Shown: piece by piece, positions 3,788 through 12,560 of the stretch
Position numbering within the stretch: the stretch's first letter is position 1
Layout: each line of letters opens with the position of its first letter
From: a virus
Taxonomy: Duplodnaviria; Caudoviricetes
Virus record (IMG/VR): IMGVR_UViG_3300031992_000070
Location: 16,912 to 80,911 of that record
DNA: 64,000 bases
Strand: one strand, 5' to 3'
Notes under the pieces: model-generated
The model's input: the letters and a program-made list of their open reading frames with translations, nothing else
Told to the model about the DNA's origin: nothing
The model's database searches: none
Position numbers and translations under genes: made by a program

Positions 3788-4132
3788 TTAATCGTTATTG
3801 TAAGGTCGTGTCTGTATGCACAGAACCTCGTTTGCGTTTAGTGCGTTTACAAGTACGGATTTGCCGTGTACCTCGTCATAGAAGCTACTCATAAATCCGA
3901 AGACTATGCACGGTACTCCAGTATGTGCCTTTATCTTTTTAAGATACTCTACAACTTTCGGCTTAAACACCATTATTTTTAGCGTCTGTCTATAGTTGTT
4001 TTCTGTAGAGTTGGCATTTGCTTTTGATTCAACGTCAAGGCCGAAATACATAAACGTTCCTCCGTTTTGCGTTTTGCCTTCTTTTAGCACAGAGCCTATC
4101 CGTCCTTGTAGAATTACAATGTTTTTATCCAC
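3788..4132 (-). CDS. SSB-like OB-fold protein
   Basis: NIVILQGRIG...GKTQNG N-terminus typical of SSB; GTG start; sits in the recombination module. Confidence 0.6.
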   Translation of the reverse strand: MDKNIVILQGRIGSVLKEGKTQNGGTFMYFGLDVESKANANSTENNYRQTLKIMVFKPKVVEYLKKIKAHTGVPCIVFGFMSSFYDEVHGKSVLVNALNANEVLCIQTRPYNND

Positions 4133-4151
4133 GTCTATTTATTTTAATTAG

Positions 4152-4225
4152 TGGTCTTGGGTGGAATCGAACCACCGATTAACGCCTTTCGGTAAGCGTT
4201 GCTTCATCCAACGAAGTTCAAGACC
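4152..4225 (-). tRNA. tRNA-like gene with a non-canonical 10-nt anticodon loop (isotype unassignable)
   Basis: GGTCTTG/CAAGACC acceptor, CTTC-GTTGGAT-GAAG D arm, AACGC-TTACCGAAAG-GCGTT arm, GGTGG-TTCGATT-CCACC T arm, A73. Confidence 0.75.
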
Positions 4226-4388
4226 AAGTTGCCCCACCGCTGTAGGGCTTAGTTGAATTTTTAAATAATTGTTTAACTTTTAACCATAACAATGATACAC
4301 CCTCACGGGCTTATATACGATGCAAAGTTACAAATAAACTTTGAATATTTCAAAATCCTATAACATAGTTTAAGTTAAAAAACCAAAA

Positions 4389-6724: not shown

Positions 6725-9700
6725 TTTTCTTTCATTGCTTTAAAACGTTTCAATACTTCTTTGTAATAATCTGGTGTTGACTTATCTGGAAACATCATTC
6801 CTAAATCAATCAGCAGTTTATCTATCTCCACAATATCCTCCCAAGTGAGTTTATTGTCTTTCTCTGCTTGGTGGTAGCCTAATAGAAATGCTTCTTTACT
6901 ACTACAATCTCTTAACCTACCATCTTGGAAATGTTCTAAGTATCTATCTTCTGCCTTACTCATAATCTTTCGTATATTGTCTTTATTCTTTTTCCATCTT
7001 TTCCTATAACAGCTACAGGAACAACATTAAACGGCTTACAAAACTTCCATATTAACCTTTTGTTAAGAGGATTTTTGAGCCATTTTTTATAGATTCTACG
7101 TTTCATCTTTCATTGCTTGTTTGAATTTTTGTTTCTATTTCTTCATAATCTGCCAACTTAGACTCTCTTATTCCATCAGGACTAATAATTGCTACTTTAT
7201 CTTTTGGAAATTGTTTCATAAAGATATAGTTTTGTATCAATTTCTTTTGATAGCCACGTCCACCACAGAAAACAACGTGACCACCACTCTCTAATGCAGC
7301 ATCTATCCTTGCTTTAATTTTTCTATTCATCTTTCATTGCTTTATTTAAATTTATAATATATTCATCATCAATTACTCCATTGCGATGTTCGTTGAGATA
7401 CATACATACTTTTTCTATCATTTCTTCCCTTGCAATCTCCACTGCTTCTAATGCTTCGTTTGTTGGAATCCAAGGAAAATTCTCAGTTATATGATTAACC
7501 TTTCCTCTTATTCTCTTTTTAATAAATTCTTCAGCCCTACTCATAGTTCTATTTCTTAATTACGATTACTTTTACTTCTGAGCCTACGAGATAATTATCT
7601 GCTGGTAATCTGAAGGAAAACAACGCAGCACCTTGGAATCCAAAACATTGTGCATCAATAGCTTTTGCCATCATCTGCTGCTCCATTTTGTTCATACCTG
7701 CAAGCATGGCATGGTCTTCTGCAAGTTCAATGGTAGATTGGTCTTGCTCTTTCTGCCATTTAGCAACCCTCACAGCAATCCTGCTTAACTTGGCAAATGA
7801 CACCTCTTGGAATTGCTTGGATAGTTCGTTGATATACTCACCTAAGTCATCACCTACTGGTTCTTCTTGCGAATTATTTCCAAAGTTGCATGAATTATCA
7901 AGATTTAGCAAGTCAGAAGTGTATGCCCATCTTTTAACCATCCCATAATTATTAATAGATTGTCGATGGATTATTCTTCCGTCGTTTGTTTCAATGAGCA
8001 AATCATCACGTTCAGGCTTTTCACTTGCATCGTGCCAAATGCTTACAGGCTCTTCTTGCAAGGAGTCAATAAAAGCAAGCAGTTCTGTCAATACTGATTT
8101 CTGGCCATCAGCAAAGTCTGTGCGTATTCCAAGTATTTTCTCCCTAAGCCTTTCAACCTCTTCACGAATCTTCTCTTTGTCTGTCATATCTTATTCGCTT
8201 ATTAAGTTCATAACTTTATTGTACGATTCTGCGTTTAAATTGTACCTTGTTCCGTTTTTAAGGATAAGTATATAGTCTGTGTAGCTAAAACCGCCTTCTA
8301 TATGACAAGAGCTAATTTCGTCAACATTGACCATTATCTCGCCACATCTGCCTTGAGTGCGTAAACTAATAAATTGTGCCATAACTATTTATTTTTAAAT
8401 GCAATCACAAGACTTAAAATAAGTGTGCATAATAGCATTGTAACACAAATTGTTGTAACTTCTTCATGCATATCATTACTTTCCTTTCTGTGCCTTATTA
8501 CTTACATGCATACCAAGTTCAAAGAAATGCTTGGCAATAGCCTTACCGACAATACCATTTACCAACTTGTTATATACAGGGTCTTCCTCAACAAAATCCT
8601 TGTATTCTTTCTCCAAGTCCACCTCTTTCACCTCAAGGGTGTCGATGAACATAATAATTCTATTTAGTTGATGTGCTGTCCTCACAACCCACTCCTTGTC
8701 ACTTTCACATATTATATGGTCGAGCAACTTGCGTTTTCTTCTTTCTATCTCCGCCACTACAGCGGATTTGTCTATTAGTTTCATAAGCCTAAATTATTTT
8801 ATTTATTATTTAAAATATACGTAATAGTGTATAATCGCCAAAATAACGGTGAATAAAGCGCCAGCAAACCATATTAAAGCTTCACCTAAATATCCTTTAT
8901 CATCCATACTATTACTCTCATTTCATATAGTTTATGAATTTCTCAATGTCTTCATCAATTAGACAACTATGAGTATCTTCATTATAAAAGTTGTTTAGCC
9001 ATTCCGCAGCTTTGTCAATAAAGGCATCAGTGCGGGTGTACTCAACAAAGATATTACTATGAGGATTACTTTCAAACCAACCATCATGTGCATTTGGTTG
9101 AACATATATTTTATCTGGTGCGTTTGTTTTCATAACTTCAACCTTTTAGTTTCTTTAAATCTTGATAGAGTGAATCAAATATAGGAAAGCAATATCTTTC
9201 ATCACCGTCGTATCTTTTATCTTTAAGCCATTGTTTAAGAGTATCCATCTGCTCATCACTAGGCTTCCACTTTGACTGAGGTCTGAGCGAGTGAAGAGCA
9301 GATAACACTGTATGTTTATCAACTCCACGCCAACAGTTAAAATGGTTGTTCTGTTCCACAAAAGCAATCGCAGCTTCTAATATATTTTTGTCTAACTGGG
9401 TTAATTCAACTTTTGGCTGTACTCTGTCTTTGAGGGATTTGAGCCAATCTAAATCTTTTTGAACGACATCTTTATTTACGTCGGCGGTTTCACTGTGTAG
9501 AATGTTTATAAGGATTTCACAAATATCATCATAATATGGACTATCATATTCACTCCAAGAGGAATTGGGAATTTCCCTCTCGTTCCCATTTGCTCCCTGC
9601 TCACCTTGTTTTTCAAGTTCTTCTAACCTTTTAATGGCATTTTCACGATAGCCTTTTATGCACTCAAGTTCTTTCTCTATAAACTTATCTTTTTCACCTT

Positions 9701-10309
9701 GCTTTTCAAGCCAAGCAACAGAATCTGTTAAAAGAAATATAGTCTTACTGTCAAGCACATTATTTAGCCTATAATATTCTAAAAAATCAATAAGTTCTTT
9801 CCTTATCCTCTCATCCTCGCTCTCTGGAACAAAGTCTGCGCATATTCCACGTGCAACTTCAACTGTAATTTTTCCACTATTAACCATCTCTTGTAGTTTG
9901 GCTATAGTGTCTTTATGTAATTTCTTGTAGTCCATAATCACAACAAATTTAATTCATGTAATTTCTCAATCATAGTCACGCAAGCATCAACAATGTTGTC
10001 TGCTTTAGTATGTAAATCACTTATGTGTGGATATGTAATATAGTTGTCATCAAGTGCTATTATTGGTTTACTGCCTTGAATTTCTGGTAAAATACCAAGC
10101 AATGCTGCAAGACTCCAACATCTAATATCGTAGTTAAAATCTTCTTTGCCATCTTTGAACAATGGTGTAGGACAAATAGATTCTACATCTGGTGGAAAGT
10201 AATCATTATCAATCTGACAAAAATAATACATATCTGCACTCTCTATTGGCAGTATCTCTGCCAACTTGCGGCTCTGTTCTAAATCAGTGTAACTTTTAAT
10301 TGTTGCCAT
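6721..10309 (-). CDS. Block of small AT-rich hypothetical genes (6721-6963, 7103-7330, 7323-7544, 7549-8187, 8191-8382, 8476-8784, 8918-9133, 9138-9941, 9938-10309)
   Basis: Co-oriented, overlapping or abutting ORFs with shared short motifs (QEEPV, EKQGE, ESEDERIRKE). Confidence 0.7.
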
Positions 10310-10342
10310 ACTTTATCCTTTCTTTTAATTGTTACTTATTAG

Positions 10343-10468
10343 TGGAGAAAGCAGACTCGAACTGCTATCTTCTGATGGTATGTTATGGGATGCCTCCCAA
10401 TGGCGCAGATTTTTTATGTACAGTCACTGCTATGACCACCAGATGTTCTGCCTTTGAACTATTTCCCC
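10343..10468 (-). ncRNA. tRNA-like RNA with an Ala-type acceptor (G3-U70, A73) and a ~55-nt insertion replacing the anticodon loop
   Basis: GGGGAAA/TTTCTCC acceptor, GTTC-AAAGGCA-GAAC D arm, 9-bp TCTGGTGGT/ACCATCAGA stem enclosing the insertion, GCAG-TTCGAGT-CTGC T arm. Confidence 0.7.
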
Positions 10469-10546
10469 AAACGCCCCACCGCTGTGAGGCTAACTGTTAT
10501 AAAATTCATAAATATGAAAGAATACCCATCGCGGGCTTATATCAAA

Positions 10547-10806
10547 AGTGGCACATTCTGCCAAGGTGTGTTGTTACACCAAAGACGCCTACGCATTGCG
10601 TGAAGGTCATTAACCTTGCTCATTCCTATTTTCCCACAGCTACATCAGAAATGTGCACCATAATTGTATTTTATTCCGTTATCAGGCTTTATAATCATAC
10701 AACCGCAAGATACTATTTTCCGTTTTGCCACATGTGGTAGTTCGCGTCACTCTTTAAAAGATGGCTACCTCCAAGCCTACTTTCCTTGTCTGTAAAACGT
10801 GCCACT
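10547..10806 (-). ncRNA. 260-nt structured RNA containing a 23S rRNA H43/H44 (L11-binding) mimic; possibly GOLLD 3'-domain-like
   Basis: 13-bp closing helix; segments GTAGGCTTGGAGGTAGCCATCTTTTAAAGAGT and GTGTAACAACACACCTTG; own promoter at ~10826-10860; no ORF on the transcribed strand. The GOLLD resemblance is from memory, not from a search. Confidence 0.7.
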
Positions 10807-10879
10807 ACATTATCAAAGAACACTTTGCAAATTTACAACTTTAATTTTGAATATTACAAGTTCGTTAGAATAGATTAAC

Positions 10880-11629
10880 TTAAATATCTTTAATCTTATT
10901 TGTTCCGAAAGTTCCGTTGTTAATCCATCTGAAATACTCGCTGTTCATTTCATCCTGCCATTCCTTTTGGTCGTCATACATCATATCATCAGATACATAA
11001 GAGAAAAATCTCAAGAGAATTTCATTTACCATATATCCGCGCAGGATGCCGCCTCCATCCATAAACACGTCGTATGGAGCAATCCCTTTGTCTTCGTTGT
11101 TCTTTGATGACTCGTCGCCAACTACGTCAAAGTGCATCCAGCGCAACACAATGCTTTCAACCTTTCGTGCAAACTCTATATTTTCCAATCCTAAAGGCTT
11201 TAGATACCTTTCCGTGTATCTGTTGAATGCGTGCGGAACGATGTCAATAACCATACCAAGACCTCTATTGCTTCCGTTTACCTTGCTTTTCATCGCAAAC
11301 GGGTCGATTGCAAGAATACCCTTTCCAGTATTGCCGTCAATCTTGTTGCTTCCGTTTTTTCTTTTCTTTTCTATTTCGTATGTGGTATAACAGAAACTCC
11401 AGAACTGTCCTTTCTTTACAGCTTTCTTTGACTTACAGATAATAAGCATCAGCCATTTGTTGTTCCTGTCATCATTAAACCGTATTCTCTGTACATAAGG
11501 GAATCTTGTACCGCGTCCAAACTTGTCCCATATCTCACTTTTAAAATCATCGTAGACGCTTATTGCAGTATTGTAGATTCGGAATGCTTCAAATGCTTTT
11601 TCCTCATCGTTCATCGTAGGTAATACCAT
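10880..11629 (-). CDS. Hypothetical protein (249 aa, start MVLPTMND)
   Basis: Probable true start at 11629 after an A-rich leader; the track start at 11776 overlaps the upstream gene. Confidence 0.7.
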   Translation of the reverse strand: MVLPTMNDEEKAFEAFRIYNTAISVYDDFKSEIWDKFGRGTRFPYVQRIRFNDDRNNKWLMLIICKSKKAVKKGQFWSFCYTTYEIEKKRKNGSNKIDGNTGKGILAIDPFAMKSKVNGSNRGLGMVIDIVPHAFNRYTERYLKPLGLENIEFARKVESIVLRWMHFDVVGDESSKNNEDKGIAPYDVFMDGGGILRGYMVNEILLRFFSYVSDDMMYDDQKEWQDEMNSEYFRWINNGTFGTNKIKDI

Positions 11630-11645
11630 ATCCTTATTTTTGTTT

Positions 11646-12560
11646 TTATTTAAATTTATATACCTTGTTGAATTTTCTCTTTTTTGCCATTTTGTAGTAG
11701 TTGATAATGTCGCATCCGCTTTTGAAACCCATAAGCCACTGTGTGCGTGCATACATAACCCATCTTCCGTCATCAAGGGTTCTCAACGCAAAGTTGTACA
11801 ACTCCATGCTTTTCCATCTTGCGCAGTCCTCCATAAGATGCTGTGCAAATACAGAGAAGTCTTTCTGTATGCTTTTGTCTGTATTATCCCAGAATACAGG
11901 AGTATAGTGTCTGTCGAAAAAATCCTTCCCGTGTTCATCAATCATAAAATCATATACCCTGCGTATATCGTTCATTCGCTTGAAAGTCCAAGCAACAACT
12001 TCGTCGTGCAGCCAGTAGAACTCATCCAACACATTAGATGTGTCATCAATATTCCTTTGTACGGGACGAACATCTATATAGCTTGAGCCTCCGTATATAG
12101 TCGTGCTGTAGTCAACGGTAGCAGCTATAAGGTCTGGTCTTCCTCTTTCATACAATGTCCTGTAGAACGTAGGATAGTCGCATCCTTTACTGCGGAATGC
12201 ACCGATACCGACACTACGACCTACTTTTGTATTGAACCTGAATCTCTTCATTACACATAACAGTTATCTGTTGTCAATCTTTTCGTGCGTAGTGTTAATG
12301 CGGCCTTTGTCAAGCAGATAGTGCATGATGTCTTTCAGATTCTTGTCGCGGTCTTTCTTTGCGCCAGACCACATTGCAACTACCTTGCTTTGCAGTTCAA
12401 GGTATGCCTCTGACTGACCTTTTCGCAGCATATTCAAGTATTCCACATACACCTTTGTTATGTCTTCGTAAGACACTTTCTCACTAATCATCAAATCAAG
12501 AATGATTGCCGCAATAAATTCCTTTGGCAGCGACTTTAATGCTTTTATTATTTCTTCCAT
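11646..12560 (-). CDS. Two hypothetical genes (11646-12251, 12264-12560)
   Basis: Co-oriented ORFs with normal spacing. Confidence 0.7.

Follow-up and report, generated by a model that had tools for sequence, protein, structure and literature searches.

The window analysed here is a stretch of 64,000 nucleotides from an 80.9-kb phage genome. Predicted genes for a tape-measure protein, RecT and RecE identify the phage as tailed and siphovirus-like. It is likely of a gut or rumen type; a Bacteroidales host is suggested by a single protein similarity, the terminase sharing 51% identity with its counterpart in Bacteroides phage C3_41T2LP. A gap of 570 nt separates the open reading frames (ORFs) at 10880–11776 and 9938–10309, neither of which matched a Pfam or PHROG family. 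Within this gap, the minus strand from 10806 to 10547 is predicted to be the gene for a stand-alone structured non-coding RNA of about 250 nt. The antisense ORFs at 10300–10740, 10664–10795 and 10454–10603 yielded no family in a coding-potential check.

The RNA contains a copy of H43, H44 and the top of H42 of 23S rRNA (Escherichia coli positions 1051–1108; C10788 is set as position 1051), which is split by an insert (Table 1). A sequence-only reading had proposed this arrangement, which is confirmed here: the strings that it quoted all occur at their places on the minus strand, and both half-modules are present once in the window. The H43 core pattern has one match in the 64 kb, at 10777–10751, and the H44 module pattern also has one, at 10583–10566, with 0 expected for either (100 shuffles).

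Table 1. Parts of the predicted RNA and the adjacent tRNA-shaped gene (E. coli 23S numbering in brackets).
Feature	Positions	Strand	Remarks
Outer closing helix, 5′ strand	10794–10806	−	Minimum-free-energy (MFE) and centroid folds; family equivalent covaries in 11/11 pairs
Internal loop, ACAGA opposite GC (10561–10560)	10789–10793	−	Resembles the AGACA stretch of the real H42 5′ strand
Top of H42, 5′ strand (1051–1055), CAAGG	10784–10788	−	Pairs with 10566–10562; R1 alignment; 5/5 pairs covary in family
H43 hairpin (1056–1081)	10758–10783	−	A1061, G1067 (10772), G1070, U1072 (10767); 1058:1080 is A-U
Junction strand (1082–1090)	10749–10757	−	U1082-A1086 pair, G1087 (pairs with C1102), A1088, G1089, U1090
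Insert, 165 nt, between 1090 and 1091	10584–10748	−	Branches from H44; closed by GACGC/GCGUC
UUUG linker between insert and H44	10580–10583	−	Each U kept in ~97% of the 75 listed members fetched by the 5′ half
H44	10567–10579	−	G1091, U1092, loop GUAACA (1093–1098), A1099, C1100, A1101, C1102, A1103
Top of H42, 3′ strand (1104–1108), CCUUG	10562–10566	−	Partner of CAAGG at 10788–10784
Outer closing helix, 3′ strand	10547–10559	−	MFE fold; followed by U-rich tail, 10546–10543
tRNA-shaped gene	10343–10468	−	Rfam tRNA model 41.8 bits; called by ARAGORN with the intron option only

The closing helix, previously put at 13 bp, appears in the minimum-free-energy fold; 10806–10794 and 10559–10547 form at most 13 bp, and 9–10 bp if transcription starts near 10802. 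As this outer helix closes the molecule, the RNA cannot be part of a ribosome. Continuity with the rest of 23S rRNA is absent, and the RNA is flanked by phage genes. The insert, estimated before at about 170 nt between GACGC and GCGTC, measures 165 nt (10748–10584), and its closing helix covaries in the family described below. The whole RNA has an unremarkable fold energy (z −1.42), and that of the insert is no better than those of shuffled sequences (z −0.73). A weak terminator-like alternative hairpin lies at 10563–10549. The RNA had also been credited with its own promoter, and a consensus-like site does exist: a sigma-70-like element at 10838–10809 on the minus strand (TTGTAA, 18 nt, GATAAT) has 9 of 12 consensus matches. 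The number of such sites in the region, two against 3.0 expected from shuffles, is not above chance. A possible promoter element of the Bacteroides type, an octamer similar to TAnnTTTG, lies at 10835–10828.

A family of phage RNAs

A degenerate H43 pattern matched at least 119 viral contigs. Two of those listed (L038 and L103) continue as real 23S rRNA, and in the other listed contigs divergence begins after ...AAAGAGU. After a further 44–355 nt a conserved module resumes: first the UUUG linker, then H44, then a strand able to pair with the five bases that precede H43. A scan with the 3′ module only found at least 120 loci, of which at least 97 were new, and at least 126 distinct members were collected from viral contigs in all. 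Twenty-four members with short inserts were aligned (alignment A1), and a covariance model was built from this alignment with the window excluded (model R1). R1 matched the window RNA over its full length with 96.3 bits (E 2e-29; model positions 1–191, window 10798–10552, minus strand); the RNA is single-copy in the phage genome. The window also follows the family pattern, with the H43 core and, after the helix-closed insert, UUUG, G, Y, GUAAYA, R, C, A and C, and its GACGC/GCGUC helix aligns with the covarying insert helix of the family in R1 and A1. Its sequence thereby places the RNA in a large phage family that is common across many habitats and several lineages.

Three cultured phages carry members at sites that are unannotated in their GenBank records. 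The member of Pseudomonas phage pf16 (L457:1489–1693; R1 111.5 bits) lies between tRNA-Asn and tRNA-Pro, that of Aeromonas phage 4_4572 (L459:1489–1788; 106.7 bits) just 5′ of tRNA-Met, and that of Cronobacter phage GAP32 (L458:1487–1746; 82.3 bits) between two hypothetical genes. BLAST indicated further candidates in Xanthomonas phage XacN1, Serratia phage BF, Erwinia pEa_SNUABM jumbo phages, Pseudomonas phages Astolliot and Milchi, and Paenibacillus phage Pd_22F. In cellular genomes, the 18-base 3′-module pattern gave 99 matches, against about 140 calculated for chance, and 11 of these are real members (L126, L131, L136, L137, L165, L172, L175, L186, L188, L191 and L198). Most are on contigs of metagenome-assembled genomes, one is on a scaffold from a Clostridiaceae isolate, and one is on a contig assigned by binning to a Thermoplasmatales archaeon; the members with cellular labels are probably prophages or mis-binned phage contigs.

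The inserts are the variable part of these RNAs. No motif common to the listed loci was found among them, the window insert resembled no insert or locus that was fetched, and a search of the phage collection for a DNA-level homologue with which to compare it gave no match. In a metagenome scan, four RNAs with an identical H43 loop carried unrelated inserts. In one subfamily (L011, L065 and L091; A1 columns ~115–135) the inserts contain a second H44-like hairpin, which has the loop UUAAUAG and, after it, bases similar to CUCAC; it looks like a duplication of part of the domain within the insert.

Covariation and tertiary contacts

Standard pairs occupy 89% of the cells in A1, against 66% in shuffles and 34–54% with slid partners; the picking rule demanded pairing at the top of H42 and in H44, which inflates the percentages for those helices, and left the outer and insert helices, as well as the tertiary positions, unconstrained. 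Members were selected by sequence pattern, and the counts carry no correction for phylogeny. All 11 pairs of the outer closing helix and all four of the insert-closing helix change on both sides in A1, and all five pairs at the top of H42 covary. Each half of the domain was read only in members fetched by the other half, invariance within the picking half being true by construction. Among the 98 listed members fetched by the 3′ module, nine positions of the 5′ half are invariant (G1055, U1060, G1063, U1066, G1071, A1077, A1085, G1087 and U1090), and the pair 1082:1086 is U-A in 66, C-G in 16 and A-U in 14. Rare double changes occur at 1057:1081, 1062:1076 and 1064:1074 in the same 98. The pair 1058:1080 is G-C, A-U or U-A in A1 and C-G in further members, and thus takes all four Watson–Crick types. 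Conversely, G1091, G1093, A1098 and C1100 are invariant in the 75 listed members fetched by the 5′ core, and in the H44 loop U1094 is kept in 74 and A1095 in 72 of them.

Published work on the real domain describes two such tertiary contacts: C1072 contacts C1092-G1099, and G1071 contacts G1091-C1100 (PMC2952862, PMC8614978). At 1072/1092/1099, the 98 listed members fetched by the 3′ module have CCG in 63 cases, UUA in 26, UUG in 7, CUA in 2 and UCG in none (Fisher p 5e-24, shared ancestry ignored); the 75 fetched by the 5′ core have CCG in 49, UUA in 17, UUG in 7 and CUA in 2, and the rule likewise holds in A1. In the second triple, G1071 and G1091-C1100 are invariant in listed members read by the opposite half. 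A subfamily whose inserts start with GUUGCRA spans three states of the first triple (L033 and L096 CCG, L062 UUA, L002 UUG), which indicates that the triple has switched more than once. The window, with U1092 at 10578 and A1099 at 10571, has the second commonest state in the family, U/U-A (26 of the 98). In real, continuous 23S rRNAs with U1072, U1092-A1099 was found in 116 of 118, which establishes U/U-A as the compensatory form; these rRNAs (L224–L343, genome contigs) belong mostly to Patescibacteria (Parcubacteria and Saccharibacteria) and some filamentous cyanobacteria. The earlier view of the U·(U-A) triple as a compensated form is thus borne out both across the phage family and in 23S rRNA, and so is the view that the tertiary fold is under selection, as helices and tertiary contacts are kept by compensatory change in the family.

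Position 1067 is A in 69, G in 26, C in 2 and U in 1 of the 98 listed members. The G1067 singled out in the sequence-only reading is present in the window and is ordinary, being shared with those 26 members and with sampled Bacteroidales 23S rRNAs (L348–L353), which also have the GUAACA loop. The Bacteroidales rRNAs differ from the window RNA in having a CCG triple, U-A at 1058:1080 and one extra base in the H43 3′ strand. The window RNA is therefore not a fresh copy of host rRNA. That it is a functionless fragment captured from host rRNA, or a contaminating piece of rRNA, is highly improbable. The core does share sequence identity with 23S rRNA, and a few viral contigs, as noted for L038 and L103, do hold real 23S rRNA; against this, all members share features absent from rRNA (the insert at 1090/1091, UUUG, A1101 and the closing helix), and the compensatory nature of the changes contradicts such an origin, as do the differences from Bacteroidales 23S rRNA.

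The part of the closing helix beneath the top of H42 keeps its pairing across the family but not its sequence. Mimicry of lower H42 and its kink-turn, considered on account of the ACAGACA stretch, was not supported, as AGACA occurs at this site in 4 of 126 listed members, about the chance frequency. The member with the shortest insert (44 nt), L077:1471–1595 on the minus strand of a 527-kb viral contig, goes further, its flanks reproducing both strands of lower H42 in real 23S rRNA (AGACA on the 5′ side, GUCGAG on the 3′ side); it is thus a longer mimic, which may include the kink-turn.

Genomic setting

All 179 tRNA genes near 102 distinct listed loci lie on the same strand as the RNA. This placement in phage tRNA clusters suggests that the RNA is made with the other translation-related RNAs of the phage and released by tRNA processing. 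The window has no tRNA array; its RNA is followed at about 80 nt by a tRNA-shaped gene, and the one other tRNA, an odd one, is 6 kb distant. It is very unlikely that the RNA serves as a folded spacer in tRNA-cluster transcripts, where it would direct cleavage by RNases or stabilise the neighbouring tRNAs. Such a role would fit its position close to tRNA genes, at distances from a few bases to some tens and without exception on their strand, but any stable hairpin would serve and the rRNA-specific tertiary contacts would be left unexplained; moreover, the window RNA lies outside a tRNA array and the GAP32 RNA between protein genes.

In the tRNA-shaped gene at 10343–10468 the acceptor, D and T arms are all intact, but the anticodon loop, which should be 7 nt, is replaced by 63 nt. 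Its anticodon stem is extended to 8 bp, the base at the U33 position would be G, and ARAGORN reads it as 'Asp GUC, 56-nt intron'. It may share a transcript with the mimic RNA and is separate from the mimic itself. Similar tRNA-like genes, with 28–54 extra bases in the anticodon region, occur about 25–40 nt from the mimic at L346:731–850, at L041:8638–8759 and in L066, where two of them (7240–7350 and ~6880–7020), with the same acceptor stem, flank the mimic. A hairpin common to the insert of the window's tRNA-shaped gene and the mimic insert of L016 was discarded as a single match at the level of coincidence. The only tRNA of the window at the Rfam gathering score, at 4152–4225 on the minus strand (37.5 bits), was not called by ARAGORN and has an oversized anticodon loop, 8 bases standing at a point where 5 model positions are skipped. 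A phage tmRNA gene is present in L024 as well (4045–4349).

Clustering of the 2,126 ORFs within 5 kb of the RNA gave, as recurrent families, HNH and GIY-YIG homing endonucleases, RNase H, TerD and an OmpA-like protein. None of these is specific to the RNA, and apart from the homing endonucleases, which lie among unrelated genes, no candidate partner recurs nearby. The RNA is absent from the nearest relatives, Bacteroides phage C3_41T2LP and L121, a relative linked through the protein of the upstream gene, which makes it an accessory cassette.

An Rfam scan had been proposed as a check. For the bacterial large-subunit rRNA model (RF02541) there was a weak hit to the H43 part alone (13.9 bits, E 0.06, model positions 1079–1158; gathering score 50). 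For GOLLD (RF02032) and ROOL there was no hit in 10250–10950 even at E values up to 10, the 64 kb as a whole contained no GOLLD match that reached the gathering score of 150 bits, and no other Rfam 15 family matched the stretch at gathering score. GOLLD genes do occur within the tRNA arrays of some mimic-bearing contigs (L066:4799–5223, L047:1359–1772 and L020:685–1176; 165–272 bits), where they are separate genes about 2 kb away that do not overlap the mimic. The suggestion that the RNA is a minimal GOLLD was thus not upheld; a reduced GOLLD- or ROOL-type RNA, for which the company of GOLLD genes on those contigs would speak, is hardly credible in view of the Rfam scan, the separateness of the GOLLD genes and a window insert that resembles no fetched locus.

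Proposed function and relation to known systems

In the mechanism that seems most likely, the 5′ and 3′ ends of the RNA would meet and rebuild the top of H42, H43 and H44, which form the uL11-binding domain. With this fold the RNA would serve as a trans-acting decoy, away from ribosomes, for a protein able to recognise the domain. Judged from sequence comparison, the chance that the phage RNA adopts the fold of the rRNA domain and, outside the ribosome, engages a factor specific for it is about even (roughly 0.5). The isolated 58-nt rRNA domain folds independently and is a complete high-affinity uL11 site, which makes free host uL11 the simplest, and the most likely, partner. Binding would yield an off-ribosome uL11–RNA particle or deplete uL11; depletion would need large amounts of the RNA, because most cellular uL11 is already in ribosomes. 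As no genes for uL11, bL12 or uL10 were found in this phage genome, any such partner would be that of the host. Position 1067 is central to the contacts of EF-G and thiostrepton, and its variation makes mimicry of the factor-binding face less likely; it does not argue against uL11 binding. The sequence-only reading also named translational GTPases and RelA, besides L11, as factors that the RNA could titrate. Titration of uL10–bL12 by the family appears unlikely, since in most members it is the pairing, not the sequence, that is kept beneath the top of H42. The accessory status of the RNA, its unexceptional fold energies and the variable insert are points against the decoy reading.

The second candidate partner for the decoy would be a toxin, or an effector of host defence, that targets the domain in rRNA. 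A stoichiometric decoy would do little against a toxin that acts catalytically. Taken strictly, as an anti-toxin decoy, with the RNA soaking up or misdirecting an enzyme that modifies or cuts 23S rRNA at H43/H44 and uL11 binding being incidental, this explanation seems unlikely. Phage tRNA clusters, in which the RNA is located, are already linked to evasion of RNA-targeting defences, this phage also has tRNA look-alikes incapable of decoding, and the H44 loop is nearly invariant (G1093 and A1098 in 75, U1094 in 74 and A1095 in 72 of the 75 listed members). The toxin Tre23, which ADP-ribosylates H44 at 1095–1098, shows that toxins target this site and sets a precedent for attack on it (PMC8661411). 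However, the fold itself also needs the conserved H44 loop, and the decoy would have to outcompete thousands of ribosomes. It also counts against this explanation that, to our knowledge, no defence system aimed at the H43/H44 site has been described.

Alternatively, the domain might be a structural scaffold, a compact ion-stabilised junction that presents a variable insert in which a lineage-specific function resides, with no factor that reads the ribosomal site taking part. The inserts of 44–355 nt with no common motif, the variation at 1067 and the known ability of the domain to fold on its own are in keeping with this role. It is nevertheless improbable, as the core is conserved far beyond what a scaffold needs, with the exposed A1095 kept and nine positions invariant in the 98 listed members, and the window insert has no sign of selected structure.

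If recognition by uL11 or by a factor that recognises the stalk base does take place, the RNA would reveal a viral route for tampering with, or shielding, the host translation machinery. Tentatively, such rRNA-domain decoys could form a new class of viral counter-measure, in which a mock stalk base formed with host uL11 would dampen stress signals linked to the ribosome or capture an immune effector directed against ribosomes; the decoy RNA would work alongside the non-decoding tRNA look-alikes of the phage. The family is also a natural variant series of a classic RNA tertiary fold, compensated base triple included, and its members in cultured phages of Pseudomonas putida, Cronobacter sakazakii and Aeromonas hydrophila make the question accessible at the bench. 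It is common in phages yet undescribed: no account of the family, or of any copy of an rRNA functional centre, was found in Rfam 15 or the searchable full-text literature.

Compared with the GTPase-associated centre of 23S rRNA, the phage RNA keeps nearly every conserved base, the H43 and H44 pairs, G1087-C1102, 1082:1086 and both base triples with their natural covariation. Unlike that centre, it is a separate small gene with its own closing helix and has an extra arm at 1090/1091 followed by the conserved UUUG, with A at 1101; most members lack the lower H42 and kink-turn sequence, and 1067 is freer. Off-ribosome mimics of rRNA sites are known from the mRNA leaders of ribosomal proteins, such as the rplJ leader bound by L10–L12 and the leader sites for L1 and S8. 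These are partial, cis-acting elements of cellular mRNAs that control translation of the downstream gene, whereas the phage RNA is a near-complete tertiary domain, free-standing and not upstream of a ribosomal-protein gene.

GOLLD and ROOL are large ornate non-coding RNAs of phages, often found among tRNA genes (PMC12286853). The mimic is likewise non-coding, phage-borne and often located in tRNA arrays, but it is much smaller, matches neither in sequence or structure, and has as its conserved part an rRNA domain that is absent from both. Phage tRNAs that offset anticodon nucleases, and pseudo-ToxI, a phage mimic of an antitoxin (PMC3475682), are also phage RNA copies of host RNAs recognised by proteins, and plausibly counter-measures. 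Those decoys copy tRNAs or antitoxin RNAs, whereas the RNA described here copies a functional centre of rRNA.
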